Assembly: GCA_020853895.1 (NCBI GenBank)
Contig: JADYYB010000121.1
Location: 470 to 64,469 of the forward strand
Reading direction: 5' to 3'
DNA length: 64,000 nucleotides
From: Bauldia sp.
GTDB lineage: Bacteria; Pseudomonadota; Alphaproteobacteria; Rhizobiales; Kaistiaceae
Numbering within the stretch: position 1 is the stretch's first letter; the number at the start of each line of letters is the position of its first letter. Positions 15,322-58,563 of the stretch are shown here, piece after piece. A model generated the notes under the pieces. The model was not told where the DNA came from and made no database searches. It was given only the letters and a program-made list of their open reading frames with translations. The position numbers and the translations under genes are program-made.

Positions 15322-15962
15322 TGCTCCGACTTGTTCGCGTTCGTAGTCGCCGTTTGCGTCGCAGTCATATGACCGAGAACCCAGCTCGAGCCATTTGTTC
15401 CTAGCCACTCCTTTCGGCCATCCAGCGTGAGGCCTAGAAGATCGACCAGCCGGTGCGCCATCTGGTCGATCATTTCCGCTATTGTCTTCGGCCCGAGATA
15501 GAATGTCGGCGCTATCGGTGCGACCACCGCACCGTATTCGGATACGGTCGTCATTGCCCGAAGATGGCCGAGATGTAGGGGGCTCTCGCGCACGGCCAGG
15601 ATGAGCCGGCGTCGTTCCTTCAGGTGCACGCCGGCGGCGCGGACCAGGAGATTGTCCCCGGTCCCCGCGGCGATCGAGGAAAGGCTGCGCATCGAGCACG
15701 GCGCCACGATCATTCCCAGTGTCCGGAACGAGCCGCTCGCCACGCTCGCGCCGACATCGTCGATGGCGTGGCGCTGCACCACCAGGCTGCTCAGCCGGGA
15801 CTGTGCGTCGCGTCCGACCTCGAGACCGAGCGTCCGTTCCCCGCCCGGCGTGACCACGAGGTGCACCTCGCTCTGTCCCGATCCGGCGAGGAGTTCCACC
15901 ACGCGGACTCCCAGCGCCGCGCCCGACGCGCCGCTGATCCCGACGACCACGCGCGGTCTCAA
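15318..15962 (-). CDS. ubiX: flavin prenyltransferase UbiX
   Basis: Track ORF 15318..16223. The in-frame TTG at 15962 overlaps the ubiD TGA. The sequence reads RVVVGISGASGAALGVRVVELL...MIVAPCSMRSLSSIAAG...DNLLVRAAGVHLKERRRLIL. Confidence 0.9.
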   Translation of the reverse strand: MRPRVVVGISGASGAALGVRVVELLAGSGQSEVHLVVTPGGERTLGLEVGRDAQSRLSSLVVQRHAIDDVGASVASGSFRTLGMIVAPCSMRSLSSIAAGTGDNLLVRAAGVHLKERRRLILAVRESPLHLGHLRAMTTVSEYGAVVAPIAPTFYLGPKTIAEMIDQMAHRLVDLLGLTLDGRKEWLGTNGSSWVLGHMTATQTATTNANKSEQ

Positions 15963-17482
15963 GCGGCCCCCCTTGCGGCGCTGGCCCGGGGATCGACACC
16001 CAAACGGTCCCAGATCTCGTCGATGCGCCCGACGATCGCGGGGTCCATGGCCAGGCGGCGACCCCACTTCCTCTCGGTCTCGGAGCCGATCTTGTTGGTG
16101 GCGTCGATCCCGAGCTTGCCGCCCAAGCCCAGCTTGGGCGATGCGAAGTCGAGATTGTCGATCGGCGTGCCGTCTATGACGACGAGGTCGCGCGACGGAT
16201 CGGAGCGTGTCGAGACGGCCCACGCCACATCTTCCCAGTCTCGCACATTGATGTCGTGATCAACGAGGATGAGAAACTTCGTATAGCTAAGCTGCGGCAG
16301 GATGGACCAGAGCCCCAGCATGACGCGGCGCGCCTGCCCCGGGTAGCGCTTGTCGATGGCGACGACCGCGATTCGATATGAGCATGCCTCGGGCGGAAAC
16401 CACAGGTCGGTTATCTCCGGGAAGCTCCGCCGTATGAGAGGCAGGAAGAGAATGTTGAGCGCTTCGCCGATGCGGGAGGGCTCGTCGGGTGGGCGGCCGG
16501 TGAACGTCGATAGGTAGACCGGCTTCTTTCGCATTGTCATCGCGGTGACTCGCGTCACGGGAAAAGACTCTACGTCACCATAGTAGCCCGTATGATCGCC
16601 ATAAGGCCCTTCCGGCGCGGTCTGAGTCGGCGAGACGAAGCCTTCGATGACGATCTCGGCGTCCGCTGGCACTCTCAGCGGAACGCTGACGCAAGAGGCA
16701 AGCCGGGGACGCTCGCCGCGCAGCAAGCCGGCGAAGCGGAGTTCGGAGAGCGTCTCGGGGAGCGGGAAGACCGCCGCCAGCATTGTCGCAGGGTCAGCGC
16801 CAATGACGACCGCCACCGGCATCTCCATGCCGCGGTCGCGCCACATCCGATGGTGGCCGGCGCCACCTCGGTGAGGAAGCCAACGGATGATCGCGGAGTC
16901 GCGGCCAAGGATCTGAATCCGATACACGCCCACGTTTTCCGGCGTCCCGGCCTCCGGGCCCCGCGTGATCACCAAAGGCCAGGTGATCAGGGGACCCGGC
17001 TCGCCGGGCCAGGAGACCTGGGCCGGCAGGCGGGTCAGGTCGACCGCCTCGCCGGAGAGGACTGTTCTTCGGTCGACGTCTCCGTTCACCTGCCGGGGAC
17101 GCATCGATAGCGCCGCACGCGCCAAAGGCAATTTTCGCAACACCTCGCCGAGACCGTCCGGCATTTCCGGCCGACTGAGCTCGGCCATCGCCTCGCCGAG
17201 CGCAGGCAAGGCGTCGGCCTCGACGCCGAGCCCCCAGGCAATCCGCTTCAGGGTTCCGAAGAGATTGACGAGCACCGGCATCTCGGAGCGGGCGCCGTCG
17301 GCCTTGACGGCATGCTCGAACAGCAACGCCCGCCCATTCCCGCGCAGAACGCGCCGATGAATCTCCGTCATCTCGTGAACGACCGATATCGGCTCGCTGA
17401 CGCGCACGAGCTCATCGGCCGCCTCGAGATGGGCGATGAAATCGCCCAGGCTTCGAAACGCGGGAAGCGTGCGACTCGGCAT
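15959..17482 (-). CDS. ubiD: UbiD-family (de)carboxylase, 4-hydroxy-3-polyprenylbenzoate decarboxylase-like
   Basis: Track ORF 15959..17656. ATG 17482 is preceded by GGAG; 17494 is also possible. The sequence reads FRSLGDFIAHLEAADELVRVSEPISVVHEMTEIHRRVL...GVYRIQILG...GDHTGYY. Confidence 0.9.
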   Translation of the reverse strand: MPSRTLPAFRSLGDFIAHLEAADELVRVSEPISVVHEMTEIHRRVLRGNGRALLFEHAVKADGARSEMPVLVNLFGTLKRIAWGLGVEADALPALGEAMAELSRPEMPDGLGEVLRKLPLARAALSMRPRQVNGDVDRRTVLSGEAVDLTRLPAQVSWPGEPGPLITWPLVITRGPEAGTPENVGVYRIQILGRDSAIIRWLPHRGGAGHHRMWRDRGMEMPVAVVIGADPATMLAAVFPLPETLSELRFAGLLRGERPRLASCVSVPLRVPADAEIVIEGFVSPTQTAPEGPYGDHTGYYGDVESFPVTRVTAMTMRKKPVYLSTFTGRPPDEPSRIGEALNILFLPLIRRSFPEITDLWFPPEACSYRIAVVAIDKRYPGQARRVMLGLWSILPQLSYTKFLILVDHDINVRDWEDVAWAVSTRSDPSRDLVVIDGTPIDNLDFASPKLGLGGKLGIDATNKIGSETERKWGRRLAMDPAIVGRIDEIWDRLGVDPRASAARGAA

Positions 17483-17534
17483 CGGCCACTCCATCGGACT
17501 GCGGTCCAGATTCCCAATCGGCCGGTCATCGTCG

Positions 17535-17548
17535 TTGCTCCCGGGCAA
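17535..17548. promoter_or_regulatory. FixK2-variant box TTGCTCCCGGGCAA (TTG[A/C]-N6-[T/G]CAA)
   Basis: Palindromic 14-mer in the ubiD/ubiT divergent intergenic region. The centre is 59 bp from the ubiD ATG and 103 bp from the ubiT ATG. Confidence 0.35.
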
Positions 17549-17644
17549 ACATCGGACGCCGGAGAAGCGATAGGCTGTCCGCGACGTCGGATGGACGGCG
17601 CCGCACGGACCGCGGAACTTGATGGACGAGCCCGAAGAGCAGCC

Positions 17645-18163
17645 ATGATCGGCCAATTGCCGCCCTATCTCTCGGCCGCCCTGCGGATGCTGCCGCTGTT
17701 CCCGCTACAGCTCCCGCTCACGCGGCTCTTCGAGTATGTAGTCTGGCGATATCCTCTGCTGTTCGATCGCCTCGGCGAGCACGCGGGCAAACGCTTCGGC
17801 GTGGAGCCGACCGACCTTCCCTTCGCCCTCCTGTTCGAGGCTTGTCACGCCTCCCCTCGCGTGACGATCCTCCGCCGTCTTCCCGCAACTCGGCTCGACG
17901 CCCACATTGCCGGGCCCCTCGCCGCGCTCATCGGCCTCGTCAATGGCTCCCATGACGGCGATGCGCTGTTCTTCTCACGCGACATCCGGGTCGAAGGAGA
18001 CATCTCGGCGATCGTGGCGCTCCGCAACGCCATCGAGGGCGCCGGCATCGACCTCGTGCGCGACGGTGCCGCTTGCCTTGGCCCGTTCGGCTTCTCCTTC
18101 GAGTGGGCTGCGGGGCTCGCCGCTACGCTCGCCGACCGGTTGACTGCCGGGGGAGGACGTTAA
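17645..18163 (+). CDS. ubiT: SCP2-domain ubiquinone anaerobic biosynthesis accessory factor UbiT (YhbT-like)
   Basis: 173 aa from ATG 17645 within track ORF 17312..18163. The size matches the 174-aa E. coli YhbT as I recall it. The assignment rests on position directly upstream of ubiU-ubiV; SCP2 identity was not checked motif by motif. Confidence 0.8.
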   Translation: MIGQLPPYLSAALRMLPLFPLQLPLTRLFEYVVWRYPLLFDRLGEHAGKRFGVEPTDLPFALLFEACHASPRVTILRRLPATRLDAHIAGPLAALIGLVNGSHDGDALFFSRDIRVEGDISAIVALRNAIEGAGIDLVRDGAACLGPFGFSFEWAAGLAATLADRLTAGGGR

Positions 18164-18164
18164 G

Positions 18165-19142
18165 GTGGAACTGGTTTGCCCGGCCGGCACGCCTGCCGCG
18201 TTCAGGACCGCAGTCGAGGCCGGAGCGGACGCCGTCTATTGCGGTTTTCGAGACGAGACCAACGCCCGCAACTTCCCCGGTCTGAACTTCAGCCGCGACG
18301 AGCTTGCCCACGCCGTCGCGTTTGCCCGCACCCGCCACGTGAAGACGTTGGTGGCGATCAACACCTTCCCCAGAGCGGGCAACCTCGGTCTCTGGAGGGC
18401 GGCGGTCGACGATGCCGTGCGGTGCGGGGCCGATGCGCTGATCCTCGCCGATATCGGTCTCCTCGACTACGCGGCGCGCGTTCACGCCGGCCAGCGTCTC
18501 CATCTCTCCGTGCAAGCCGCGGCGGCAAATCCCGAGGCGATCGCCTTCTATGTCGAGACCTTCGGCGTCAAACGCGTCGTGCTGCCTCGCGTCCTCAGCG
18601 TGGCTGAGATCGCGTCCGTCGCCTCCGCGGTGGCATGCGAGGTCGAGGCGTTCGTCTTTGGTGGCCTGTGCGTCATGGCGGAAGGAAGCTGTCTGCTCTC
18701 GTCATACGTGACCGGCTTGTCCCCGAACATGAACGGCGTCTGCTCTCCCGCCAGTCACGTCGCCTATCGGCAGGAGGGCGAGGAAACCGTCTCGCGGCTC
18801 GGACGCTTCACTATCAACCGGTTCGGCCCGCATGAGACCGCTGCCTATCCGACCATCTGCAAGGGCCGCTTCCGAAGCGCCGTCTCCAATGGCTATTTGT
18901 TCGAGGAGCCCTCGAGCCTCGACGCGGCTGAACTCGTTGCTGCCCTCCGCAGCGCAGGGGTCACTGCCCTGAAGATCGAAGGCCGCCAACGCGGCCGCGC
19001 CTATGTCAACCGCGTCGTCCGGGCTTTTCGCGAGGCGCTGTCTGTTCTCGACGACGGCCGCACGGTCGATCTGCAGTCGCTCAACACCTTGACCGAGGGA
19101 AACAAGTCGACGACAGGCGCCTACCACAAGACGTGGCGCTGA
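18165..19142 (+). CDS. ubiU: U32-family O2-independent ubiquinone hydroxylase subunit UbiU
   Basis: 325 aa. The GTG start follows GGGAGGA. U32 N-terminus MELVCPAGT...AGADAVYCG. The four-Cys pattern is present (GLCVMAEGSC...GVCSP...TICKG). Confidence 0.85.
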   Translation: MELVCPAGTPAAFRTAVEAGADAVYCGFRDETNARNFPGLNFSRDELAHAVAFARTRHVKTLVAINTFPRAGNLGLWRAAVDDAVRCGADALILADIGLLDYAARVHAGQRLHLSVQAAAANPEAIAFYVETFGVKRVVLPRVLSVAEIASVASAVACEVEAFVFGGLCVMAEGSCLLSSYVTGLSPNMNGVCSPASHVAYRQEGEETVSRLGRFTINRFGPHETAAYPTICKGRFRSAVSNGYLFEEPSSLDAAELVAALRSAGVTALKIEGRQRGRAYVNRVVRAFREALSVLDDGRTVDLQSLNTLTEGNKSTTGAYHKTWR

Positions 19143-19143
19143 G

Positions 19144-20097
19144 ATGAAACTGACACTCGGCCCGACACTCTTCAACTGGCCGCCCGCCAAATGGCAGGAC
19201 TTCTACTTCCGGATCGCCGACGAGGCGCCTGTCGACGCCGTGGCCATCGGCGAGGTCGTGTGCTCCAAGCGGATCCCGCTTCTGGCCGATCGAGTGCCGG
19301 CTGTGGTCGATCGCCTCGCGCGCGCCGGGAAAGAAGTCCTTCTCTCGTCCCTGGCACTCGTCACGCAGGCGCGTGAGCGAAAGTCGACGATCGATCTCGC
19401 CGAGTCTGAGCACATGATAGTGGAGGCGAACGACATGTCCTGTCTCGCTCGCCTTGCCGGACGACCGCATGTCATCGGCCCGTTCATCAATATCTACAAC
19501 GAGGCCACTGCGCAGTTCTTCTCGCGAAGGGGGGCAGCCCGGATCTGCCTGCCGCCCGAGTTGCCCATGCCGTCGATAGCGGCAATTGCCAAGGCCGTCC
19601 CCGACGTCGTCGTCGAGGTGCTCGCCTTCGGACGGATACCGCTCGCCATCTCCGCCCGATGCTATCACGCACGCCTCTACGGGCTGTCGAAGGACAATTG
19701 CCAATTCGTCTGCGTGAACGATGCCGACGGGGTCGTCGTCGACACACTGGACGGGGAAGGAATCCTGGCAATCAATGGTGTGCAGACCCTCTCTCACAGC
19801 GCCATCGATCTCATCGCCGATCTCGATGAGCTCACCTCGATCGGCGTGGGCGCCTGTCGCCTGTCGCCGCTCTCATGCGACATGGTGGCAGTCGCCGCGC
19901 TCTTCCGCGCCGTCCTCGACGGCCGCCTCGACGGGGAAGAAGCGCGCGGCCGCCTGATCTCGATCTACCCGCAGGTTCCCCACTCGAACGGCTTTCTCCA
20001 CGGCCGCGCCGGTGCCGACTGGATCGACCCGCTCAGTCCTCCGCGATCAGCTGCAGGCGCGGCAGATCGAGAAGGCGCACGCCCTTCGGCACGATAA
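19144..20097 (+). CDS. ubiV: U32-family O2-independent ubiquinone hydroxylase subunit UbiV
   Basis: 317 aa starting 1 nt after the ubiU stop. The Cys pattern EVVCSKR...ARCYHARLYGLSKDNCQFVC (C..C-x12-C-x3-C) matches the one reported for UbiV. Confidence 0.85.
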   Translation: MKLTLGPTLFNWPPAKWQDFYFRIADEAPVDAVAIGEVVCSKRIPLLADRVPAVVDRLARAGKEVLLSSLALVTQARERKSTIDLAESEHMIVEANDMSCLARLAGRPHVIGPFINIYNEATAQFFSRRGAARICLPPELPMPSIAAIAKAVPDVVVEVLAFGRIPLAISARCYHARLYGLSKDNCQFVCVNDADGVVVDTLDGEGILAINGVQTLSHSAIDLIADLDELTSIGVGACRLSPLSCDMVAVAALFRAVLDGRLDGEEARGRLISIYPQVPHSNGFLHGRAGADWIDPLSPPRSAAGAADREGARPSAR

Positions 20098-24057: not shown

Positions 24058-24071
24058 TTGATCTCGATCAA
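24058..24071. promoter_or_regulatory. FNR/FixK-type box TTGATCTCGATCAA
   Basis: Perfect palindrome. The centre is 70 bp upstream of the nnrU ATG (24135) and 84 bp from the moeA ATG (23980). Confidence 0.65.
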
Positions 24072-27700: not shown

Positions 27701-27743
27701 CCTGAATTATCAGCATACGTCTCGAGATGCTGATTGAGCTGCG

Positions 27744-28400
27744 TCAATCTCGATTCCTGGGGTCTGGCCAGGCGCCCATCTCCAGGGCCCCTGCCCTCAC
27801 CAACCCGCCGATGAAATCGGCCAGAGCGCCAACCTCGTCGCGCCTGAAGCTCGGAGTCCCGGGAAGCGGCGCACCGTCGGAAACCAGAGCCACCGTGTCG
27901 GCATCGCCGTTTGCGTGGAGTGGCGGCGGGTCTTCTCCCGAGCGAATCTCGATGCGCTTCATTGGAATGCTCTTGAACCCCTCCACCAGCACGAGATCGA
28001 CTGGGGAAAGCCGCCGGAGAATATCGGCAAGATCTGGCGGCTCAGTCGCGTCCTCTCTCCGTTCGTGCAGAATGGCCCAGCGGCTTCTGGAGAACATGAC
28101 GACATCCACCGCGCCCGCCTCGCGGTGCACGAAGGTATCCTTCCCAGGTTGATCAAGATCGATCGCGTGGTGGACATGCTTGACGGTCGAGACCGATATT
28201 CCGCGCGCCCGCAGCGCGGGGATCAGGCGCGAGATCAGCGTGGTCTTGCCGCTGTTCTTCCAGCCCGCGACGCCGAGCACCTGGGGAAGCGCGATCGGGT
28301 TTCCCGCTGGCTGTGCGCGAAAGGCAGAGCTGTGTTCGAGGTCCCGACCTGGTTCGGCGTCCTCGTGCTTCACCCGCAACGATGGCTTCAAGGCTTTCAT
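27744..28400 (-). CDS. mobB: molybdopterin-guanine dinucleotide biosynthesis adaptor MobB
   Basis: C-terminal part of track ORF 27744..29084. ATG 28400 overlaps the narK stop. It carries the P-loop GVAGWKNSGKTTL, plus VKHVHH and LVLVEGFK. The roughly 35-aa N-terminal extension is uncertain. Confidence 0.8.
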   Translation of the reverse strand: MKALKPSLRVKHEDAEPGRDLEHSSAFRAQPAGNPIALPQVLGVAGWKNSGKTTLISRLIPALRARGISVSTVKHVHHAIDLDQPGKDTFVHREAGAVDVVMFSRSRWAILHERREDATEPPDLADILRRLSPVDLVLVEGFKSIPMKRIEIRSGEDPPPLHANGDADTVALVSDGAPLPGTPSFRRDEVGALADFIGGLVRAGALEMGAWPDPRNRD

Positions 28401-31261: not shown

Positions 31262-32764
31262 TCACGGCGTTGCCGCAAGCGCCCCGTTGAGCGTTCCCCT
31301 CGGCAGTATCTCGGCCCGCAGGTAGGCGACGAGCGCCCAGATCTCCTCGGGCGTGAGATAGCTGAACGAAGGCATCAGCGGAGCGTCGCCATTGGGGATG
31401 CCGGCTGCGATGCGGTAGTAGAGCTGCACCGGATCGGTGCCGGCCTTGACCTCGCCGGCGGCAAGATTGGCCGGAGGAAGGGGATGGCCGGGGAAGTCCT
31501 CGATGAACGCGGCCGCGTCGCCGTCGCCCGCTCCCCTCGCCCCGTGGCAGGAGGCGCAATTGTCGGCGTAGAGCTGCCGCCCCTGTCCCCGGAGCTCCTG
31601 GGTGAACGGCGGTTGAGGCGTGACCGCCACCGCCGGCCCTGGCTCAGGCCGCTCGACCCAGAGGCGATCGAGGACGGTGACCAGGCTCGCCACCTGCTCC
31701 TCCGTGAGCGCCGCGAAGCCGGGCATGCCCGAACTCGGCAGCCCTTCGACGATCACGTGGCGGAGATCGGCGTCCGACGCTATGCCGCTCTGGGTGGAGA
31801 CGAAGCGGTAGAGGCCGGCCGTGAGGTCGCGCGGAAGCGTGCCGAAAGTCGGCGAGTCCTTGCCCAGCCCGTTGCCGTCGCCCGAGACGCCGTGGCAGCG
31901 GGCGCATTGGCTGACATAGAGCGGGTAGCCGTTCTGCACCCCGCGGTCGGCGACCGTGTCGGCGGCGGCGACCTCCACGGCGGGAGTCGTCAGATCTAGA
32001 CCGCCGAGGGTGGGGGGCCGAATGAGGAAGGCGGCGGCGACGAGGATCAGCACCATGGAGGCCGCGAAATAGGTGAGGAACGACTTGTCGGTGCGGAGCG
32101 CGAATTCCCACTTCCGGCGGAACTTGTTCGCCGCGGTCCGCATCGATTGGTAGGGCCTCACCGCGATGTTGATCGGGTACGTCCAGACGTGGATGAGCTT
32201 GGTGAAGGGGAAGTACGCCGCAAACAGGAAGCCCAGAAGGACGTGGATCTGGGTGAAGAGCCCTGCCCCCGCCATGAGCTCGGGCTCCGGCCGGAAGCGC
32301 CAGAGGCTCGCGAACCAGGCAGCGCCTGGGAAAGCCGCGCCCCAGATCCGGTCGATCACCGACTGGTAGAGGCCGAGGGCGATGATGGCGATGATGAAGA
32401 GATGAACGACATAGTCGTCGAGCTGGCTCAGCGCCCGCACCTCGGGAACGGTCAGCCGGCGCACGAGCGCGACGAACGAGCCGACGATCGCCATCGCCCC
32501 ACCGACGAGACCGATCCAGAAGAAAGCGCCCACCGCCACTTGCGATCCGACAAGGCCGCCGAAGAAGCCGGAGAGATGGCCAATGAAGAGGAGGATGATG
32601 CCCCAGTGCAGGAGCAGCGAGGCGAAGCCGAGGACGCCCCGGTTGAACATGCCGCTGGCGCGCGTGGTCAGCCCGAAGGGCCTGTAGATCATCCTGATGA
32701 ACGGGACGACGAAGAACAGCGTCAGGGCGACATAGGGGAAGACCGCCCAGAGCAGTGTGCTCAT
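31262..32764 (-). CDS. narI: respiratory nitrate reductase gamma subunit NarI fused to an extra TM helix and a C-terminal dihaem cytochrome c domain
   Basis: 500 aa. The NarI core (about residues 1-205) has both haem-b His pairs (HWGIILLFIGH; IHVLLGFLFAAYFPFTKLIH). An extra TM spans about residues 229-248. This is followed by CARCH (287-291) and CASCH (403-407), with Met candidates in GMPGF and LMPSF. Confidence 0.9.
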   Translation of the reverse strand: MSTLLWAVFPYVALTLFFVVPFIRMIYRPFGLTTRASGMFNRGVLGFASLLLHWGIILLFIGHLSGFFGGLVGSQVAVGAFFWIGLVGGAMAIVGSFVALVRRLTVPEVRALSQLDDYVVHLFIIAIIALGLYQSVIDRIWGAAFPGAAWFASLWRFRPEPELMAGAGLFTQIHVLLGFLFAAYFPFTKLIHVWTYPINIAVRPYQSMRTAANKFRRKWEFALRTDKSFLTYFAASMVLILVAAAFLIRPPTLGGLDLTTPAVEVAAADTVADRGVQNGYPLYVSQCARCHGVSGDGNGLGKDSPTFGTLPRDLTAGLYRFVSTQSGIASDADLRHVIVEGLPSSGMPGFAALTEEQVASLVTVLDRLWVERPEPGPAVAVTPQPPFTQELRGQGRQLYADNCASCHGARGAGDGDAAAFIEDFPGHPLPPANLAAGEVKAGTDPVQLYYRIAAGIPNGDAPLMPSFSYLTPEEIWALVAYLRAEILPRGTLNGALAATP

Positions 32765-40043: not shown

Positions 40044-40057
40044 TTGACGTGGATCAA
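40044..40057. promoter_or_regulatory. FNR/FixK-type box TTGACGTGGATCAA in the nar / nnrS-hemN divergent region
   Basis: Perfect TTGA-N6-TCAA. It lies about 124 bp from ATG 39920 (minus strand) and about 135 bp from GTG 40185 (plus strand). Confidence 0.7.
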
Positions 40058-43255: not shown

Positions 43256-43663
43256 TCAATGGTGTGGGTGTGCTCCGAGCCTCCCATGGAGACGCGCATC
43301 GTGGGTCTTCGAGTGCTCCGTGAACCAATGGTCAAGTTCACGTGCCAGTCGCCCCGAACTGCCGGCCGGGTCGGCCTCATAGCCGTCCATGATGTCGCGG
43401 ATCTCGTCCAGCAGCCGCTCGTGATCGTGCTTGTGCTCGGCGTACTCATCATAGTCGTGTTCGCGCATGAACCGCTCCTCCAGGGCGAAGTGGGAGGAGA
43501 TTGCCCGAAAGATATCGCCGAGAATCGCTTCGATCGGTCGCGCGCCCCCGCCCAGCTTCAGTTCGTCGTCAAGCCGGTTGATGAGGTCCATCATCTCCCG
43601 GTGCTCATGATCGACGGCATCGTTGCCGATCCGATAGTGCTCTTTCCATTCCATGAGAGCCAT
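43256..43663 (-). CDS. bacteriohemerythrin (hemerythrin-like metal-binding protein)
   Basis: 135 aa: MEWKEHYRIGNDAVDHEHREMMDLIN...HFALEERFM...EHKHDHERLL...HWFTEHSKTHD, carrying the H/HxxxE/HxxxH/HxxxxD ligand pattern. AGGAG lies 8 nt upstream. Confidence 0.9.
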   Translation of the reverse strand: MALMEWKEHYRIGNDAVDHEHREMMDLINRLDDELKLGGGARPIEAILGDIFRAISSHFALEERFMREHDYDEYAEHKHDHERLLDEIRDIMDGYEADPAGSSGRLARELDHWFTEHSKTHDARLHGRLGAHPHH

Positions 43664-43674
43664 CTTCTCTGCTC

Positions 43675-44217
43675 CTAGTTCGCCTGGATCGCCCCCACCC
43701 CCTCGTCGCCGTCGGAGGAGAAAACGAAGCCCCCCGCGCCTGTCTTGAAATCGATGACCGCATGTTGTGCCGGCGCCAGCACGACGTGCCGGCTCGCCGT
43801 GTAGTCGAAGCCTTCGGTGGCCGGGTTGTCTCGCATCCGCACTGCGATGTCATGTTCGCCCGCCATCAGCCGGAACTGCTCGTGGATGCGCGACGGGCCG
43901 TCACCGGCAACGCCTGAAGGCGGCAGCTCGCCTTCGAAGAGCCGAGCGCCGTCCACGCTGAGCTCGACGAATACAGGTGGACGCCTCCGCGGGCAGATCT
44001 CGGTGCGGCGCATGTTGGGCGGGAGGTCCGCGATCTCCTCCTCCGTGAGGGGACGGCAAGCCGCCCGTCTGTCGGCACCATGGCTGAACGACATCGTCAA
44101 GACCGCGGTATCGGCAGGGAGTGCCCGGAAGATCGGCTGGTTCGAGATCAGACTCGCGACGCTGATGACGAAAAAGAGAATGCCAAACTGGGCAAGGAGC
44201 CGGGCGCCGAGGATCAT
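43675..44217 (-). CDS. N-terminally membrane-anchored hypothetical protein, 180 aa
   Basis: Its ATG overlaps the upstream TAA (TAATG). It has a single TM (LLAQFGILFFVISVASLI) followed by a soluble domain of unknown family. Confidence 0.65.
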   Translation of the reverse strand: MILGARLLAQFGILFFVISVASLISNQPIFRALPADTAVLTMSFSHGADRRAACRPLTEEEIADLPPNMRRTEICPRRRPPVFVELSVDGARLFEGELPPSGVAGDGPSRIHEQFRLMAGEHDIAVRMRDNPATEGFDYTASRHVVLAPAQHAVIDFKTGAGGFVFSSDGDEGVGAIQAN

Positions 44218-45788
44218 TATCCTGCAACCCCCGTCTCAACCACGTCCGCCAGCTCCTTGGAGCGCAGTGACTGCCGTTCTGCGGAGGGTAGTCGCGAGAC
44301 GATCTCGGCAAACCGGGCAAGCTCTGTCTCTGCGCGGACAACCTCGAGCGGAGAGGCCCATATCTCTGTCAGCCTGTCCCGCGGCACGCGAGCCCTGAGA
44401 TAGGGGTCGCGCTCGCCGGCGAAACGCTCCTTGGTCCAACGAATCCCGAGCCGGTTGTAGCAGGCGTTCTCGGCACATCCCATCACGGCGACGCCATCCG
44501 CCAGGTCCTTGCTGAGGATGTAGTCGATCAGGGAAGGCGGAGACATAGCCACGCACGGCATCACGACCGCGTCCCGCTTCCGGTGCGCGGCCGCGCCATG
44601 GTCGCAGGCCAGGATCAATACGCGCGACTTGCCGGTGAGGTTTGCAGCGACCTTAAGCGTCTGCTCCCGCAATGCGCGGAGAGGAAGATCGGGCAGGTCG
44701 ATGCCGGTCCGCAGTTCCTCGGTGCGCCTGAAGGGGGTCGAGGATGGACAGGCGCCCATGCATACCCCGCACGAAACGCAAAGGTCCGGATTGACCGCCG
44801 CCTGGTGAGGAAAAGGCAGCGCGTCGGTCCGCGGAACGAGTTGGATTGCCTCGTAGGGGCAGTCCTCCACGCACCGGTTGCAGCCATTGCAGTGGGCCAG
44901 ATCGACCTCCGCCGCTTTCGGCCGGCGGAAGGGCGGCAACCACGGCAGGGCCGCCACCATGACGAAGACGGCCGCGAGAGTGGCCAGGATCGCCAGGCCC
45001 GGGACGGAATCGGGAAGCCCGTACAGCGGCAGAAACCACCAGTCCAGGCCTACCTCGGTCGGTATCGTCGCCAGATTTGCCGGACCCTGGCTGAGCGCAG
45101 GCCTTATTATCGCGACCGCTAGGATGGCAGCCAGGATAAGCCCGGCGAGCAGGCGCGGCGGGTTCACCCTGGGCCGCGAGACGCGCCTGATGTGAATCCA
45201 CATCGCCGCAAGCAGCATCAGCGGCACCGCGATATGCAGGAAAACGAGAAGCGTGAAGAAGCGGCTGCTCAGGCTTTGCGGCGTCAGGAAGTTCCGCTCG
45301 ATCGGCTCCCCGAAGATCGGCAGGACATCGAGCAGGCGCGCCGACACGACCGCCACATGCTGGGCCAGCTGGTCCCACACCAGCCAGTACCCGGTGATGC
45401 CGGCCACGTAGATGAACGCGACCAGAGGAACCCCGCTCATCCACGAGAACCATCGCGTCCCGCGGTAGCGATCGAGCGAGAATTCCCGAAGCACGTGGAG
45501 ACCGACCACCAACAGCATCACCTCGGACGCGTAGCGGTGGAAGCTCCGCGTGACCCCGGCGTGGAACCATGCGTTGCGTGTGATCCACTCGACCGATTGA
45601 TACGCCGCCTCGATGCCGGTGTCGAAGAACGCGAACAGGTAGACCCCGCTCACCGTCACGATCCAGAAGAAGAAGAACCCGAGCGCGCCAAGCTGTGAGA
45701 ACGGGTTGAGTGCAGGCGAGAAAAGCCGATCACAGCCCCGCTCGAGGTACATAAAGCCCTGGCGAAGAACGCGCTTGATCCGACTCAA
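44217..45788 (-). CDS. tri-domain redox fusion: dihaem cytochrome b (bc1/b6 N-terminal type) + 2x[4Fe-4S] ferredoxin + MvhD/FlpD-like domain
   Basis: 523 aa. There are two His pairs, each 14 residues apart (HRYASEVMLLVVGLH; LHIAVPLMLLAAMWIH), in cytochrome-b-like helices. CNGCNRCVEDCP and CVSCGVCMGACP follow. The C-terminal segment CVAMSPPSLIDYILSKDLADGVAVMGCAENACYNRLG is typical of the MvhD domain. The start is TTG 45788 or ATG 45752. Confidence 0.85.
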   Translation of the reverse strand: MSRIKRVLRQGFMYLERGCDRLFSPALNPFSQLGALGFFFFWIVTVSGVYLFAFFDTGIEAAYQSVEWITRNAWFHAGVTRSFHRYASEVMLLVVGLHVLREFSLDRYRGTRWFSWMSGVPLVAFIYVAGITGYWLVWDQLAQHVAVVSARLLDVLPIFGEPIERNFLTPQSLSSRFFTLLVFLHIAVPLMLLAAMWIHIRRVSRPRVNPPRLLAGLILAAILAVAIIRPALSQGPANLATIPTEVGLDWWFLPLYGLPDSVPGLAILATLAAVFVMVAALPWLPPFRRPKAAEVDLAHCNGCNRCVEDCPYEAIQLVPRTDALPFPHQAAVNPDLCVSCGVCMGACPSSTPFRRTEELRTGIDLPDLPLRALREQTLKVAANLTGKSRVLILACDHGAAAHRKRDAVVMPCVAMSPPSLIDYILSKDLADGVAVMGCAENACYNRLGIRWTKERFAGERDPYLRARVPRDRLTEIWASPLEVVRAETELARFAEIVSRLPSAERQSLRSKELADVVETGVAG

Positions 45789-45836: not shown

Positions 45837-46667
45837 TCAGAGACCCGCGTGCTTCTGCTCGAGCCGGCGATTGTTGCGCCACACCCGAAGGAGCAGGATG
45901 CCCATGATGATCAGGGAGATCGCCCCGATCACGATCCCGAATCCGAGGCTGTAGTCGATACGGTATGCGCCGGTCGTCGCATCGTAGACGGTACAGAGGA
46001 ACTTGACGCGTTCGAGCAATCCGTCCAGCGAGAGGGACCGCAAGCTCGATCCCAGGACCAGTTCCTTGAGGGGCTCCACGAAGACCTGCATGGGAAACTG
46101 ATCGCCGTAGACGTGGCGGTAGACACGACCGTCCGCATCCAGAATCGTCGTCCGCGTCAGATGGTCGAACCCGCCGGCGGTCGGAGCGTAGGAGAAGCCC
46201 ACCTCATCCAGGAAGGCTTCCATCTCCGCGGCCTCTCCGCCGGCCACTGTCCAGGCCGGCTCCCGCGCGATCCCCTGGACGCGTGCGAAGTCGGCAAGCC
46301 TCGCAGGGGTGTCGTTGCGGACGTCGAAGCCGATCGTCAGCACGTTGAACGCGTTGCTGCCCACCGCAGCGCGAGCACTGTCGACGGCGCGTCTCAACGT
46401 CTGCGTGGTCGCCGGACAGATCGTGTTGCAACTGGTGTAGACTAGGCTGATGACCAGCGGCCTTCCGCGATAGTCGGCAAGCGTGAGCGTCTCGCCATCC
46501 GATCGGAAGAACGTCCCGTCCACCACTCGGCCGATGATGGCCTCGCTCCTCGCGAGCGCGGCATCGCGGTCGATACGCGGCAGCTCCTCATGGCCCGCTG
46601 CTGCCGTCGAAAGGACAAGCCCTCCGATCACGACCCCAAGCCGGAAGCGATGATACCTTGTCCGCAT
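45837..46667 (-). CDS. SCO1/SenC copper chaperone with C-terminal TM segment
   Basis: 276 aa with an N-terminal anchor, the thioredoxin-like motif LVYTSCNTICPATT (CxxxC), and a C-terminal hydrophobic helix. Confidence 0.85.
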   Translation of the reverse strand: MRTRYHRFRLGVVIGGLVLSTAAAGHEELPRIDRDAALARSEAIIGRVVDGTFFRSDGETLTLADYRGRPLVISLVYTSCNTICPATTQTLRRAVDSARAAVGSNAFNVLTIGFDVRNDTPARLADFARVQGIAREPAWTVAGGEAAEMEAFLDEVGFSYAPTAGGFDHLTRTTILDADGRVYRHVYGDQFPMQVFVEPLKELVLGSSLRSLSLDGLLERVKFLCTVYDATTGAYRIDYSLGFGIVIGAISLIIMGILLLRVWRNNRRLEQKHAGL

Positions 46668-46706
46668 ACACCCGCTCCACCAGACCAGCGACTGTCGCTG
46701 GACTCC

Positions 46707-48431
46707 TTACCTGAAGAGCCAAACCTCCGATAGATACTTCCAATTTATGAAGTAGTAGAGCAGGAACGCTATGAAGAATACCGCCACCAAGGTGATCGTG
46801 CCGGGCAGCTTGACCGTATTGTAACTTCCATATTGACCCACCACTTTTGCGGCGGAGTGAAGTGGGAATGTCAGTGGGACCGCCTCCCTGTCGAGGCGCT
46901 TTCCGAACAGAACCGTTCCGACGGTGATGGCGATGTAGAGCAGCCCACCGATGGCGGCCAAGATGGCGGAAAGACCGTTGAGCGCCATCATGAGGAAGGC
47001 GCCGGGCGCGATTTCAAAGCCGAGATTGGCGTCGGCGAAGGTTATGTCCCAATGGCGGCGCGGCACGCCCAGGGTGCCAGCGCCCATCATGAACAGGGAT
47101 ATCCCCGCAGCGCCTATACCAAAAATGTAAGGCTGGTACTTGGCCAGCTTCGGCCAGATGATGTCCCGCTGGAAGATCAGCGGAAGCACATAATAAGTGA
47201 TGGCCATGAAGGCGAGGGTCGTTCCGGCCACGACAGTGCCGTGGAAATGGCCCGGAGCGTAGAGCGTATTGTGCATCAGCACGTTGAGCTGCTCCGTTCC
47301 CAGCACGACTCCCGAGATGCCCCCGATGAAGCCGAACAACACCAGCGAAAGGAACATGCCCGAGAAGGCCGGGTTACCCCAGGGAGCCTTGCGCAGCCAT
47401 TCGAACACCCCCTTGGTGAACCCGTTGCGACGCTGAGCCGCCTCGATGGCGCCCGGCACTGTGAGTCCGTGGATCATCGAGGCGAGGACGGCGAGATACA
47501 TGAGGTAGCTCGCGTTGACGATCTTCCAAGCGGAGCTGAGGCCGGGTTCGGCGAGCAGATGATGGGCGGAAGCGAGCTGCAGGAAGAGGATGTAGAGGAA
47601 GAACGCGGTTCGGCTGACCTTCTCCGACAGGGGCTTCGCCCCCACCGTGAGCGCGGCGATCAAATACCAGACGCTGACATGAGCCGCGACGTTGACCTGC
47701 TGGGACGAGTGTCCCATCCCCCACCAGACGACCTTGTACATCAGGGGATCGATGTAGGGGATGAGACCGAGCGACCAGAGAAAAGTCGGAACGAGGATGA
47801 TGGCTCCCGAAGCCAGCGTGAATACCGCGATGATTGCCGCTGTAAGCGCGCCAAAGGTAACGAGTGGAATCGATCCCTGATAGGTGCGCTCCTCACGGGC
47901 AATCACCAGCGTTGCGAAGAACACCCCCAACGCCAGCAGCGCTCCAACCGCGAAGAGGATAAGTCCCAGATAGAAGTGAGGGGCGGCTTCCATCGGCGGA
48001 TAGGAGGTGAACATCACGCTCGAATTGCCTTGCAGCACCGCTACATTGGCAGTGATTGCGCCCAGTACCATGAGCACGAAGGCCAGCCAGGCTATGCGCG
48101 GCGCAGCGAGACGCGAACTGAGGATCACGGCGGACGCGAAGTAGAGCACCGCCACTTCGAAGAAGATGATCCAGAACAGGAGAACGTTGGCGCCGTGGCC
48201 GGTCAGGAGCAGATAGAACCAATCCGCTGGCAGCAGATGCACGGCCGGCCAGCGGGTCAGCGCCACGAGAAGGCCCATGAGCCCACCCCAGGCCAGAAAG
48301 ATCACCGCAACGACCGCATTCGCCTTGATCAATTGCTGCGCTGCAGCCTCGACCCGGAATCCCGTGTAGCCGCAAATCCTCGAGACGACGTCCCGGCGGG
48401 CGCCACTAATCGGAATGTCGGCAGCGGTCAT
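46707..48431 (-). CDS. haem-copper oxidase superfamily subunit I, B-family(ba3)-like, lacking the cross-linked Tyr
   Basis: ATG 48431 overlaps the subunit II stop (ATGA). All six His ligands are present (TGHG; GMGH; SAHH; PGHFH). By eye it aligns along its length with T. thermophilus ba3 subunit I, as recalled from memory. Helix VI reads GHSSQQVN in place of GHPIVY. Confidence 0.9.
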   Translation of the reverse strand: MTAADIPISGARRDVVSRICGYTGFRVEAAAQQLIKANAVVAVIFLAWGGLMGLLVALTRWPAVHLLPADWFYLLLTGHGANVLLFWIIFFEVAVLYFASAVILSSRLAAPRIAWLAFVLMVLGAITANVAVLQGNSSVMFTSYPPMEAAPHFYLGLILFAVGALLALGVFFATLVIAREERTYQGSIPLVTFGALTAAIIAVFTLASGAIILVPTFLWSLGLIPYIDPLMYKVVWWGMGHSSQQVNVAAHVSVWYLIAALTVGAKPLSEKVSRTAFFLYILFLQLASAHHLLAEPGLSSAWKIVNASYLMYLAVLASMIHGLTVPGAIEAAQRRNGFTKGVFEWLRKAPWGNPAFSGMFLSLVLFGFIGGISGVVLGTEQLNVLMHNTLYAPGHFHGTVVAGTTLAFMAITYYVLPLIFQRDIIWPKLAKYQPYIFGIGAAGISLFMMGAGTLGVPRRHWDITFADANLGFEIAPGAFLMMALNGLSAILAAIGGLLYIAITVGTVLFGKRLDREAVPLTFPLHSAAKVVGQYGSYNTVKLPGTITLVAVFFIAFLLYYFINWKYLSEVWLFR

Positions 48432-48982
48432 GGCTGAGCTCCGCCCTCGCTCGCGAGTACGATGATCCGGCCGAGCATCTGATGATGGCCGATCCCGCAA
48501 TACTCATTGCAGACGATCCCGTACTCGCCCGCTTCGGTCGGGGTCACTGTGATCACGTGCTCGTATCCCGGGTGGACTTGGATGTTGATGTTGGTCGGCA
48601 GCAACGAGAACCCGTGCTGCCAATCGGCGGACGACAGATGGATTCGGTAGCTCTCGCCCTCGCGAAGCTGCAGGATCGGCCACCATTCCCAGAGCCGCGC
48701 GAGCATATAGGCATCGCCGCCGACCGGGGGCTGCACGACCGGCACGCCCGCCTCCTCGCCAACCTGATACTGCCCTGCGAAGTCGTAGACCTTCTGCTCG
48801 TACTCGCCAGGGGTTACGCGATAAGTTTCATTGGAGAGGTTCTGGCCGCCGAAGAAGTGCCACGCCACCATGAAGAAGAACATGAACAAACCCCAAAGGA
48901 ACGCGATCGCGATCCAAATGAGTTCGACACGTTCGATCGGCTCGTTCCACCAGACTCGCTTCTCGGGTGAAGCAATAGTCAC
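48428..48982 (-). CDS. haem-copper oxidase subunit II with intact CuA site
   Basis: 184 aa. The GTG start follows AGGGAGG. One TM segment. The cupredoxin motif H-X34-C-X-E-X-C-X3-H-X2-M is present (DWQH...CNEYCGIGHHQM). Confidence 0.9.
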   Translation of the reverse strand: MTIASPEKRVWWNEPIERVELIWIAIAFLWGLFMFFFMVAWHFFGGQNLSNETYRVTPGEYEQKVYDFAGQYQVGEEAGVPVVQPPVGGDAYMLARLWEWWPILQLREGESYRIHLSSADWQHGFSLLPTNINIQVHPGYEHVITVTPTEAGEYGIVCNEYCGIGHHQMLGRIIVLASEGGAQP

Positions 48983-49170: not shown

Positions 49171-49434
49171 TCCCGCACCTCCATGGCCGCCCTCCCAGGG
49201 GCCTTGATTCCATTTTATGGCACCACAGGTTTTTGAGGCCCGCAACCAAAAAATGGGACGGGCGCAGTGAAACTACGACTTGACAGGCCACGATTTTGAC
49301 CAAGGCATCCCTGACGCATGGCCTCATCGGAACGTCCTAGTATAAGCTTATGATGATTGAACCTGGCTTCTCGCCAAGTGGGTGGGCTGCGGGAACACTG
49401 GCGAGGCGTGGGCGTATTGTATGGAGGAACTCCC

Positions 49435-49884
49435 ATGAACCATCGAAATCTTGCCACTGTCGTCGCGTTCGTGTTGCTCCTGGGCTTCTCGTCTTCCCAG
49501 GGCGAGGCACAGGAGGCCGACCCCGCGCTGAGGAGTGCCATAGCGGCGGCCGATCCCGGCGCAGGTCAGAGCGTTTCGACGCGCTGTTCCGCGTGTCACA
49601 CCTTTGACGAGAACGGGCAGAATAGAGTCGGTCCCAATCTGTACGGGGTCGTTGGACGGGGGATCGGGGGGAAAGAGGGCTTCAACTACTCGCCACCCTT
49701 TCAGCAGCTCATGGCCGCCGGCGACACCTGGACCTTCGAGAGGCTTGATGGCTTCCTCGCCGATCCCCGGGGCACGATCCCAGGCACCCGCATGGCTGTT
49801 CCTGGAATCACCGATGAAGCGGATCGTCACAACTTGGTCGCCTATCTGCGAACCCTGTCTGCCTCCCCAGTCCTGCTCGAATAG
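49435..49884 (+). CDS. class I c-type cytochrome (c2/c550-like), periplasmic
   Basis: ATG 49435 follows GGAGG. It has a signal peptide, then CSACH, GPNLYGVVGR and a distal Met in GTRMAV. It is divergent from the oxidase operon. Confidence 0.85.
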   Translation: MNHRNLATVVAFVLLLGFSSSQGEAQEADPALRSAIAAADPGAGQSVSTRCSACHTFDENGQNRVGPNLYGVVGRGIGGKEGFNYSPPFQQLMAAGDTWTFERLDGFLADPRGTIPGTRMAVPGITDEADRHNLVAYLRTLSASPVLLE

Positions 49885-56148: not shown

Positions 56149-58563
56149 TCAACGGGCCGTTATCCGCGCGGTGCTGCCGTCCTGGCGTCCGGACGGTCCG
56201 ATCCTCGATACTTCGCAGAGATAGGACCGCATCGAATTGGAGCCCGACAATGAGTCGATGATCGCTCCATCGATTGCATTATTATAGGACAAATCGGATC
56301 GTCCCCAAACGTCCGTTGGATCCCACCAGCCATATTGGGCGCAAACGACGTCCTCCCGAAGTGCCACCGTCAGCTCGGCACGGGCAGTGAAACGGCCGTC
56401 GGGAGTGACGATGTCGACAAGGTCGTGGTTGTCGATCTCTCGCGCGGCCGCGACCTTCGGGTGGATCTGGACCACCGGGAACGGCATCGCTTCGACAATC
56501 GATGATTCCTGCCGCTGCTGGCTATGGCAGAATTGCGGCCACTTAGCGCAGGTGAGTCGCAGTGGATAGAGGGCGAGGTCACGTCGGCTTTCAGGGCTCA
56601 TCCTCGGCGGTTCGTATGTCGGGAGCCGGTCTTCACCGACTGCTCCGAGTGTGGCGGCGATGATCTCGACTCGGCCGCTCGACGTGGCGAAGCCGCGTTC
56701 GCGGCTTCTGCCCGTGCCCGACTTGAGCCTCACCCTGACACCCTGGGGATTGGCGCGCAGCGTCTCCAGGGAAATCCCGGTGGGCTCCAGTTGATGCCTC
56801 AGGCCTTCGTCCGGATCACCGCCGAAGAAGCGATCGCCTAGCCCCAGCCTGACGGCCAGCTGGAAGACGATGTCCGTGTCGGAACGACTCTCGCCCCGCG
56901 GCGGAAGTACCGCTGGCCGCAGTTGGACCCACTCTTCCGCCTCCTCACTGATCACAAAACCCGCCTGCAAACCAGAACGTTCCCACGCCGAGGCGACCGG
57001 CAGAATAAGGTCGGCCTCGCGGCTGGACGGCGTCAGGAACAGTTCCGTCATCAAGTAGAAGTCGAGCGACCGTAGAGCCTCCGCGGCGTACTCGGTACGC
57101 GGCTTCGTGAGCGCGAAATTGCCGCCGAACGACACCAGTGCCCGTATCGGATAGGGATCGCCAGTGGCAATTGTCCGGAAGAGGTCCTTTGTCGTGACCC
57201 ATCCGCGGCGGGGTGGCCCTAAGGGACGTTGATCGCCGCCGAGCGTCCGAGCTCGGGTCTTCTCGTCTACCCATTCGAACGCAGAGACGTCCCGAACGGG
57301 AGGTTTGTTGAACCAGACGTTGCCACCCTCAGCATCGAGACTGCCGGTAAGCGCATACAGGACATTGATGCAGCGGGTGGTCTGCGAGGCGTTCGAGTGT
57401 TGAGCCGTACCGGTCCACGTAAAGAAGGACACCGGCCCGCATTTGCCCAGCCATTCGGCGAGTTGCTCGATGTCTTCGATGCGGAGTCCGGTGATTTCCG
57501 CGACACGATCGGGCGGATAGTGCGAGCAGCGTTCGCGGAGTCCGTCGAGGACCGGCCGACAAGACACCGTCGTCCCTCGGCACGCCACCCCGCGGACGCC
57601 AGACAGGGACGCGGTGGCCGAGATCGGCGCGCCCCTAGGACACGGTACGGCAACGCCGAGCGCCTCGTCCCAGATCGTCGGAACGCCGGCGCCCTCCGCG
57701 CCCAGCAGGTCAATGTCCGTCAGAAAGGTCCCATCGTCGTCTCGCACGAGAAACGCGGCGTCGGTGTAGTTTCGCAGAAACGTCTGATCGGCACCGCCGC
57801 GCTCCAGCATGAGATGGGCAAGCCCCAGCGCCAGGGCACCGTCCGTGCCGGGCCTGAGCCCGAGCCACAGATCCGCACTGCGAGCCAGGCCCTGCCGGCG
57901 CGGATCGATGACCACGAGTCTGGCGCCTCGCTTCTTCGCTTCGCGGATCGGCGCCACTTGCGATAGCCAAGTCGCGGTCGGGTTGAAGCCCCACAGGAGA
58001 ATAAGGCCCGTATGCGAATAGTCGGGCATGCCGATGCCGGCACCCCAGGTGAGCATTGGCGTGAAGTCCTTGTGCCAATTACAGTTCTCCGTCGCGAATA
58101 CGAGGTTCGGGCTGCCGAAGGCGTGAACCAACCGATGGATCCACCCGAAGCTGTCGGCGATTGCGGTGCCGCTTGGTGTAGTGACGGCGAAAGCGACAGC
58201 CTCGGCACCGCTTTCAGCCGCGATCAATCCAAGCCTTCTCGCCGCCAAGTCCAAGGCTTCGCTCCAGCCGATCGGCTGAAACCCGGGGTCATCGCTGCCC
58301 TTCGGGTTGGTCCGAACCAATGGCGCAGTCAGTCGATCCGGGTGATGGACGAACTCGGGAGCGGTCTTGGCCTTGATGCAAATCGAGCTGCCCGTCGGAT
58401 GACTTGGGTCGGGCTCGACTCGCAAGAGCCGACCGCCTTCTACTGTGGCGAGACATCCACAGCGCGAGATGCACAGAGCGCAATAGGTGGGGATCTGGAC
58501 TTGAGCCAACGTTAAGCGCCTGGAAACCGCTTCAGGTGTGGCCGCAGTGAGGCGGCGCCGCAT
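56149..58563 (-). CDS. molybdopterin-dependent oxidoreductase (DMSO reductase superfamily), cytoplasmic, substrate unknown
   Basis: 804 aa. The N-terminal 4Fe-4S motif is YCALCISRCGC...SSICIKAK. MopB-type sequence continues throughout. No hydrophobic signal follows the RRR. Confidence 0.85.
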   Translation of the reverse strand: MRRRLTAATPEAVSRRLTLAQVQIPTYCALCISRCGCLATVEGGRLLRVEPDPSHPTGSSICIKAKTAPEFVHHPDRLTAPLVRTNPKGSDDPGFQPIGWSEALDLAARRLGLIAAESGAEAVAFAVTTPSGTAIADSFGWIHRLVHAFGSPNLVFATENCNWHKDFTPMLTWGAGIGMPDYSHTGLILLWGFNPTATWLSQVAPIREAKKRGARLVVIDPRRQGLARSADLWLGLRPGTDGALALGLAHLMLERGGADQTFLRNYTDAAFLVRDDDGTFLTDIDLLGAEGAGVPTIWDEALGVAVPCPRGAPISATASLSGVRGVACRGTTVSCRPVLDGLRERCSHYPPDRVAEITGLRIEDIEQLAEWLGKCGPVSFFTWTGTAQHSNASQTTRCINVLYALTGSLDAEGGNVWFNKPPVRDVSAFEWVDEKTRARTLGGDQRPLGPPRRGWVTTKDLFRTIATGDPYPIRALVSFGGNFALTKPRTEYAAEALRSLDFYLMTELFLTPSSREADLILPVASAWERSGLQAGFVISEEAEEWVQLRPAVLPPRGESRSDTDIVFQLAVRLGLGDRFFGGDPDEGLRHQLEPTGISLETLRANPQGVRVRLKSGTGRSRERGFATSSGRVEIIAATLGAVGEDRLPTYEPPRMSPESRRDLALYPLRLTCAKWPQFCHSQQRQESSIVEAMPFPVVQIHPKVAAAREIDNHDLVDIVTPDGRFTARAELTVALREDVVCAQYGWWDPTDVWGRSDLSYNNAIDGAIIDSLSGSNSMRSYLCEVSRIGPSGRQDGSTARITAR

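Follow-up and report, generated by a model that had tools for sequence, protein, structure and literature searches.

A locus on the minus strand of the Bauldia sp. DNA analysed here (the window, meaning the whole stretch of 64 kb) probably encodes a two-subunit nitric oxide reductase of the eNOR type, a lineage derived from the B-family heme-copper oxidases. Judging from sequence features, we put the probability of this reading at about 0.85. Enzymes of this kind have already been published and biochemically characterised and are very common, and the gene is a new, generically annotated member.

The longest open reading frame for subunit I spans 46707-48500 and opens with a TTG at 48500, and translation more probably begins at the ATG at 48431, the start also used by P0001, a 574-residue protein from an independent JGI metagenome contig that is 100% identical to subunit I. 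An AF2 model of low confidence, built on a 25-sequence alignment (mean pLDDT 55), predicts ~13 transmembrane (TM) helices. In a phmmer search of the PDB the closest chains are B-family ba3 oxidases (Thermus 1EHK/1XME, and 7DEG) at ~5e-42; A-family oxidases match at merely ~1e-6, and no cNOR or qNOR chain is found among the matches at E <= 1e-3. Read on the minus strand, the codons 47714-47691 (gga cac tcg tcc cag cag gtc aac) encode G240, H241, S242, S243, Q244, Q245, V246 and N247. The phmmer alignment, with which MAFFT alignments agree, pairs ba3 GHPIVY with GHSSQQ, placing H241, the first CuB/FeB ligand, on ba3 H233 and Q245 at the site of the cross-linked Tyr237. None of the six canonical His ligands is missing (H79, H241, H290, H291, H395 and H397). 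The preliminary description had reported the motif as GHSSQQVN with these residue numbers, a Gln in place of the cofactor Tyr, and retention of the SAHH and GHFH motifs; the codons, the alignment to ba3 and the presence of H290, H291, H395 and H397 bear it out on each point. Features are collected in Table 1.

Table 1. Features of the predicted eNOR locus (positions in the window)
Feature	Position	Strand	Basis or equivalent
Predicted eNOR subunit I, 574 aa	46707..48431	-	Pfam COX1 6e-64
Helix VI motif G240-H241-S-S-Q244-Q245-V-N247	47691..47714	-	codons and alignment
H290-H291 (SAHH), ligands 2 and 3 of the non-heme metal	47559..47564	-	ba3 H282, H283
H395-F-H397 (GHFH), axial ligands of the high-spin and low-spin hemes	47241..47249	-	ba3 H384, H386
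H79, helix II, other low-spin heme ligand	48195-48197	-	ba3 H72
Helix VIII, K-channel analogue and Y309/Y312 pair	47460..47507	-	alignment to ba3
Y256, K-channel analogue	47664-47666	-	ba3 Y248 (alignment to ba3)
Predicted eNOR subunit II, 184 aa, N-terminal TM and cupredoxin	48428..48982	-	weak Pfam COX2/Cupredoxin; NCBIfam CoxB 1e-11
Small single-TM protein upstream of subunit II, ORF 79 aa	49006..49245	-	same position in 77/80 loci
SCO1/SenC-type copper chaperone, C-terminal TM anchor, CxxxC = CNTICP	45837..46667	-	Pfam SCO1-SenC 2.4e-13
Fusion of N-terminal cytochrome b (bc1/b6-like), two [4Fe-4S] ferredoxin motifs and FlpD/MvhD-like domain	44217..45788	-	Pfam
180-aa protein, N-terminal TM segment	43675..44217	-	syntenic in 71/80 loci
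Bacteriohemerythrin, 135 aa, last gene of conserved cluster	43256..43663	-	NCBIfam bact_hemeryth 97 bits, cut-off 84
Mono-heme cytochrome c (c550/CycA-like, CSACH), divergent	49357..49884	+	Pfam Cytochrom_C 1.7e-9

The residue at the Tyr site is Tyr in O2 reductases, Glu in cNOR and qNOR, Asn in sNOR and Gln in eNOR (Table A4, PMC8756737), and because Gln is the published eNOR diagnostic at this site, subunit I can be assigned specifically to eNOR. One criterion used to recognise NO reductases among heme-copper oxidoreductases is that the cross-linked Tyr is missing while every metal ligand is retained (PMC11214002). This supports the preliminary description, which had taken the combination as the mark of an NO-reducing or otherwise divergent lineage, and the comparison with published sNOR, eNOR and gNOR signatures that it had proposed identifies Gln as the eNOR residue (PMC8756737). 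The eNOR family is described as adjoining the B-family and having CuA-containing subunit II homologs (Murali et al., PMC11214002); a single proton channel is predicted for it (Table A4 of PMC8756737, after Hemp & Gennis 2008), and the residue equivalent to ba3 S309 is conserved (PMC11214002). The locus combines six His ligands and a Gln four residues after the first of the metal-ligating His residues (H+4) with kinship to the B-family, a subunit II that has a CuA site, and a K-channel analogue, and the clade of Gln-bearing relatives to which it belongs holds a haloarchaeon, Anaerolineales and other Chloroflexi, and Proteobacteria. Purified eNOR from Rhodothermus marinus contains heme As and reduces NO with a kcat of 0.68 per s at 25 C (PMC11214002). 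Whether the non-heme metal of eNOR is FeB or CuB is not established in the main text of PMC11214002.

Characterised members of the family (Hemp & Gennis 2008; PMC11214002) are R. marinus Rmar_0161 and the Magnetospirillum 'cytochrome a1-like' enzyme ('ba3-a1'), the alphaproteobacterial 'ba3-a1' subtype of B-family oxidases having been renamed eNOR (PMC8879329). Like this family, the locus is related to the B-family, has Gln at the cross-link site and three His ligands to the metal, encodes a CuA subunit II and a K-channel analogue that includes the ba3 S309 equivalent, and carries sco1 in the operon. It differs in that subunit I is ~80% identical to its nearest database relatives and is thus a new sequence, that the operon has no heme o synthase gene of the kind carried by most relatives, and that the predicted ligation of the low-spin heme is His/His, as against the His/Lys variant reported for some eNORs. 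The best-matching solved structure is Thermus thermophilus ba3 (1EHK, 1XME; E 5e-42, ~29% identity), which agrees with the predicted enzyme in helix count and, like it, has the six His ligands, a subunit II with CuA and one channel, of the K type. It has GHPIVY with the cross-linked Tyr237, however, where subunit I has GHSSQQ, and subunit I further differs from it in helix VII, which is without the conserved Pro and has a polar residue five positions before the HH pair (HH-5), and in helix VIII, which is longer by one inserted residue and carries a Tyr pair.

Other heme-copper families were considered and rejected. A B-family O2 reductase needs the cross-linked Tyr at H+4 (GHP-x-V-Y), and subunit I reads GHSSQQ. 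The sNOR/bNOR (qCuANOR) enzymes are likewise NO reductases that derive from the B-family, possess cupredoxin subunits and have a putative proton channel, but they require Asn at the Tyr position (PMC8756737), which in subunit I is Gln. In gNOR one active-site His is replaced by Asp and subunit II is without CuA ligands (PMC11214002), whereas here three His residues and a full CuA site are present. The cNOR and qNOR enzymes catalyse the reaction predicted here, have no Tyr cofactor and carry a polar residue at H+4; they are nevertheless related to the C-family, take electrons through a cytochrome c subunit or from quinol, and have no cytoplasmic proton channel. Like nNOR, they need Glu at H+4 as the fourth FeB ligand, and the locus has Gln, a CuA subunit and no NOR match in the PDB at E <= 1e-3.

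The Gln-Gln motif is conserved well beyond this locus. When each GTDB species was represented by a single genome, at least 578 of these species representatives contained a relative. The best 80 of these at least 578 genomes, with loci from Alpha- and Gammaproteobacteria at 69-80% identity, all carry GH-x-x-Q-Q-x-N, in every case as GH[SAF][ST]QQ[IVM]N. The 120 closest database homologs (77-81% identity) uniformly read GH-S-[ST]-Q-Q-x-N, and GH-x-x-Q-Q-x-N is present in 119/119 distant relatives (~45-60% identity) from Anaerolineales, Caldilineaceae, Gemmatimonadota and others, so that Gln-Gln occurs in 319/319 relatives checked. The motif is far above chance. Searching for homologs of the basal representative P0123 brought up Chloroflexi and Gemmatimonadota, and no match named Rhodothermus.

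In a neighbour-joining tree of 47 sequences, which does not include the characterised R. marinus and Magnetospirillum eNOR sequences, all sequences with the Gln group together in a clade of 99% bootstrap support, comprising subunit I, Proteobacteria, Anaerolineales and Caldilineaceae MAGs (Chloroflexi), Gemmatimonadota and the haloarchaeon Natrarchaeobius. Support for this clade was 57% in an earlier, sparse tree and reached 99% with denser sampling. The classical B-family (GHP-x-V-Y) is a separate clade in the same tree (100% support), and a paraphyletic archaeal grade (Hodarchaeales, Thermoproteota) that keeps the Tyr, in the form GH-x-x-Q-Y-x-N, joins the Gln clade at 81%. Members of this grade are 38-46% identical to subunit I and have Q244, N247, E92, Y280 and H321 in common with it, but differ in having Tyr at H+4, Pro-Val before the HH pair and no helix VIII S-Y-x-x-Y. 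Because the tree places a Gln clade next to a Tyr-retaining grade, the Tyr-to-Gln change seems to have happened once, at the base of the family; such an origin agrees with the published idea that NORs evolved from O2 reductases. The 'K-family' O2 reductases are said to cluster with eNOR (bioRxiv 10.1101/592808), and we infer that the Tyr-retaining archaeal grade is probably this 'K-family'.

Subunit I is part of a conserved operon, which we surveyed by tblastn of the window proteins against the best 80 of at least 578 loci. The order conserved across loci is small TM protein (77/80), subunit II (79/80), subunit I (80/80), heme o synthase-like protein (67/80), SCO1/SenC (77/80), cytochrome b/FeS fusion (74/80), 180-aa protein (71/80) and bacteriohemerythrin (66/80). 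The stop codon of subunit II overlaps the start of subunit I as ATGA, and its CuA site is complete, with H123 and C158-N-E-Y-C162-G-I-G-H166-H-Q-M169 (48476-48511); the CuA motif is present in 79/80 of the same relatives. The small TM protein, which has no family match in Pfam or NCBIfam, probably starts internally to give ~37-54 residues and may be a small subunit. The Pfam scores of the fusion protein are 3.5e-21 for Cytochrome_B, 7e-11 for Fer4 and 3e-6 for FlpD, and the 180-aa protein has no match in Pfam or NCBIfam. The divergently transcribed mono-heme cytochrome c matches NCBIfam Cyt550 at 1.7e-20, under the cut-off, and is a candidate electron donor to CuA; it is found near eNOR in just 8/80 loci.

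The operon order II-I-(heme o synthase)-sco1 agrees with published eNOR operons, the usual arrangement being II, I, heme o synthase and sco1, as in Ferrigenium straubiae (bioRxiv 10.64898/2026.01.22.701106). In the Bauldia locus a heme o synthase (ctaB-like) gene was found neither at the operon nor elsewhere in the 64-kb window, and no ctaA was seen in the window; both absences count against the eNOR reading, eNOR being reported to use heme As. The Magnetospirillum eNOR neighbourhood includes both ctaA and ctaB. Directly upstream of the operon there is no FNR-type box with up to two mismatches.

The surroundings of the eNOR genes are an anaerobic nitrate-respiration island. The narGHJI genes, narK, nnrS and hemN lie within 8 kb of eNOR, and ubiTUV is found further upstream. 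The window gene set includes narK, narG, narH, narJ and a narI fused to a di-heme cytochrome c, together with ubiD and ubiT/U/V for O2-independent ubiquinone synthesis (NCBIfam UbiT, UbiU and UbiV, each above cut-off) and moeA, moaA and mobB. No nirK, nirS or nosZ is present among the ORFs scanned in the 64-kb window. Heme A synthesis requires O2. The neighbouring hemN, ubiTUV and nar genes indicate anoxia, at odds with O2-dependent heme A; this mismatch, like the lack of nirK, nirS and nosZ among the ORFs scanned, counts against the eNOR reading.

The K-channel of ba3 has recognisable equivalents in subunit I, with ba3 S309 corresponding to S318, T312 to H321, T315 to T324 and Y248 to Y256, and each of the four subunit I residues is at least 99% conserved among 83 clade members. 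In search of a compensating Tyr, we mapped every conserved Tyr onto the ba3 alignment. Those conserved in the clade are Y73, Y97, Y144, Y154, Y184, Y232, Y256, Y280, Y309, Y312 and Y435, and of these Y309 and Y312 alone are confined to the Gln clade. On helix VIII the two make up an S-Y-x-x-Y motif, invariant within the clade, that in the alignment is missing from the Tyr-retaining sisters and from ba3. The position of the C-family Tyr, six residues before the HH pair (HH-6), is Leu. The Gln clade is further set apart by a polar residue at HH-5, which in subunit I is Q285, and by the loss of Pro from HH-4. By the geometry that residue numbers imply, Y309 and Y312 would prolong the i+3 stripe S318-H321-T324 toward the active site, suggesting that the pair extends the proton path and does not substitute for the redox cofactor. 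A wider proposal, which we hold only tentatively and think doubtful, is that the proteobacterial eNOR is more than a plain two-subunit cytochrome c:NO oxidoreductase and is the core of a conserved seven-gene module. Three extra proteins, namely the cytochrome b/2x[4Fe-4S]/MvhD-like fusion, the 180-aa membrane-anchored protein and the bacteriohemerythrin, would form a dedicated quinol-linked or redox-sensing branch of the module, and Y309/Y312 would extend the K-pathway upward, taking on proton delivery and not the redox role of the lost Tyr.

The idea that the Gln codon arose from faulty sequencing or assembly, or that the gene is a pseudogene in decay, deserves practically no credence: the reading frame is intact, the six His ligands are present, the gene is coupled to subunit II through the ATGA overlap, and the same protein occurs on the independent metagenome contig (P0001). 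The Gln-Gln in every one of the relatives checked refutes this explanation, and the motif is no error. A more substantive alternative, though still a very improbable one, is that the enzyme has remained an O2 reductase in which the role of the Tyr moved to Y309/Y312 of helix VIII, as in the C-family cbb3 oxidases. It would account for the invariance of S-Y-x-x-Y in exactly the clade without a Tyr at position 245 and for its absence from the sisters and ba3, and the inferred geometry, with Y309, Y312, S318, H321 and T324 on one i+3 stripe, is also in its favour. However, R. marinus eNOR did not reduce O2 with any of several donors tried (PMC11214002), and Murali et al., from models and sequences, found no evidence for a migrated Tyr in these families (PMC11214002). 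The Leu at HH-6 also argues against it, as does the helical register, by which the position aligned with ba3 T302, facing the metal site, is occupied by neither Tyr.

The remaining alternative concerns the role of the protein and accepts its family: an eNOR working outside respiratory denitrification, in NO detoxification or on another substrate, in an organism that reduces nitrate only to nitrite. We consider this unlikely, although the window of 64 kb contains no nir or nos genes, the NO-stress gene nnrS adjoins, the characterised R. marinus enzyme turns over slowly (PMC11214002), and detoxification has been discussed for Ferrigenium (bioRxiv 10.64898/2026.01.22.701106). Against these points, the 64 kb are part of a genome in which nir and nos genes possibly lie elsewhere, the K-channel analogue and the CuA input suit a respiratory enzyme, and in estuarine denitrifying communities eNOR transcripts are the most abundant of the nor types.

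For the predicted eNOR we propose the following mechanism. A periplasmic donor, probably a c-type cytochrome, would reduce the CuA of subunit II, from which electrons would pass to the low-spin heme (H79, H397) and on to the high-spin heme (H395) and the non-heme metal, presumably copper or iron, held by H241, H290 and H291; the SCO1-like protein would load copper. Q245 would occupy the place of the His-Tyr cross-linked cofactor of O2 reductases. Reduction of O2 would be impossible because a site without the redox-active Tyr could not give the fourth electron, and the two-electron reaction 2 NO + 2 e- + 2 H+ -> N2O + H2O would still be possible. Protons would probably be taken up from the cytoplasm by way of the K-channel analogue (Y256, T324, H321 and S318), and uptake from that side would make the reaction electrogenic, adding to the membrane potential.

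Murali et al. counted 547 GTDB genomes with eNOR (PMC11214002), and subunit I is one more eNOR in an already widespread family. Smaller points of remaining interest are the conserved accessory genes and the eNOR-specific Tyr pair of helix VIII. The occurrence of an eNOR in an anaerobic nitrate-respiration island sharpens the question of how an enzyme reported to depend on heme A, made with O2, matures under anoxia. The main practical interest is annotation, such genes still being labelled oxygen reductases. Since NCBIfam has no eNOR model, genomes of this sort are read as having an extra O2 reductase and no NO reductase, and misreading eNOR as an O2 reductase distorts predictions of N2O production.

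Gene co-occurrence was counted in the 80 best proteobacterial loci out of at least 578 genomes with a relative of subunit I, the eNOR-type heme-copper oxidoreductase. Three genes downstream of subunit I accompany it in most of these loci: one encoding a fusion of cytochrome b, 2x[4Fe-4S] and FlpD/MvhD-like domains (74 of 80), one for a 180-aa membrane-anchored protein without family assignment (71/80) and one for a bacteriohemerythrin (66/80). The cytochrome b/Fe-S genes adjoining eNOR have been termed "rather unusual" in a 2026 preprint (bioRxiv 10.64898/2026.01.22.701106); contrary to that description, among the 80 proteobacterial loci their presence beside eNOR is the rule.

A heme o synthase (CtaB/CyoE-like) gene lies between subunit I and sco1 in 67 of the 80 related operons, and no ctaB-like sequence is found anywhere in the 64-kb window. 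The arrangement lacking this gene is shared by 12 other loci, mainly from Woeseiaceae, Steroidobacteraceae and other Gammaproteobacteria, as well as by the truncated locus L001.

Helix VIII of subunit I carries an S-Y-x-x-Y motif that is invariant throughout the Gln (eNOR) clade, whereas neither the Tyr-retaining sister sequences nor the ba3 oxidase of Thermus thermophilus has it. Its two tyrosines, Y309 and Y312, share an i+3 stripe with the K-channel residues S318, H321 and T324. Four proteins (P0178, from a Dehalococcoidia MAG, P0191, P0217 and P0257) form a separate HCO-like clade with 100% bootstrap support, in which helix VI reads F-H-x-x-H-Y. These proteins carry Y-H where the HH pair is expected and G/A-Y-x-H where GHFH is expected, and therefore have Tyr in place of the high-spin heme proximal His and of one metal ligand.

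Features of the window and their coordinates
Feature	Position	Strand	Remarks
ubiD, then ubiT (SCP2), ubiU, ubiV	15959-20097		ubiTUV on strand opposite to ubiD
NarI (nitrate reductase gamma) + cytochrome c ORF	31262-32764	-	500 aa
Three-gene set with eNOR	43256-45788	-	also 3' of subunit I among L002-L080
Interval between subunit I and sco1	46667-46707		40-bp gap; compare L003 10726-11650
Y309 + Y312 of subunit I	47496-47507	-	helix VIII
Molybdopterin oxidoreductase, N-terminal Fe4S4 domain	56149-58563	-	804 aa
FNR/NnrR-like palindromes (examples)	24058-24071, 27734-27747, 40044-40057, 45775-45788

For the molybdopterin oxidoreductase, scores against all NCBIfam models (Fdh, Nas, Nap, Dms, Phs) fall far short of the cut-off. 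Its gene adjoins a transporter set of the FecCD/ABC/periplasmic-binding type, together with a gene of the DUF364/DUF4213 families. In the NarI ORF, the NarI domain (residues 3-210) appears to be joined to a C-terminal, CcoP-like di-heme cytochrome c domain (residues ~260-484) as a putative single-ORF fusion.

A window-wide search for TTGAT-N4-ATCAA with at most two mismatches showed FNR/NnrR-like palindromes to be enriched (37 observed vs 10.8 expected), a count reached in 0 of 100 shuffles. The nnrS and moaA genes each have one on their upstream side, in the case of nnrS at a distance of ~107 bp, and another sits where the cytochrome b fusion gene begins; at this threshold none lies directly upstream of the small ORF heading the eNOR operon. 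The genes for O2-independent ubiquinone biosynthesis, ubiT, ubiU and ubiV, belong to a ubi group that has the nar cluster and genes for Moco biosynthesis as neighbours. Because ubiTUV, the Moco genes and the nar cluster occur together with hemN and nnrS, the window is an anaerobic-respiration island.
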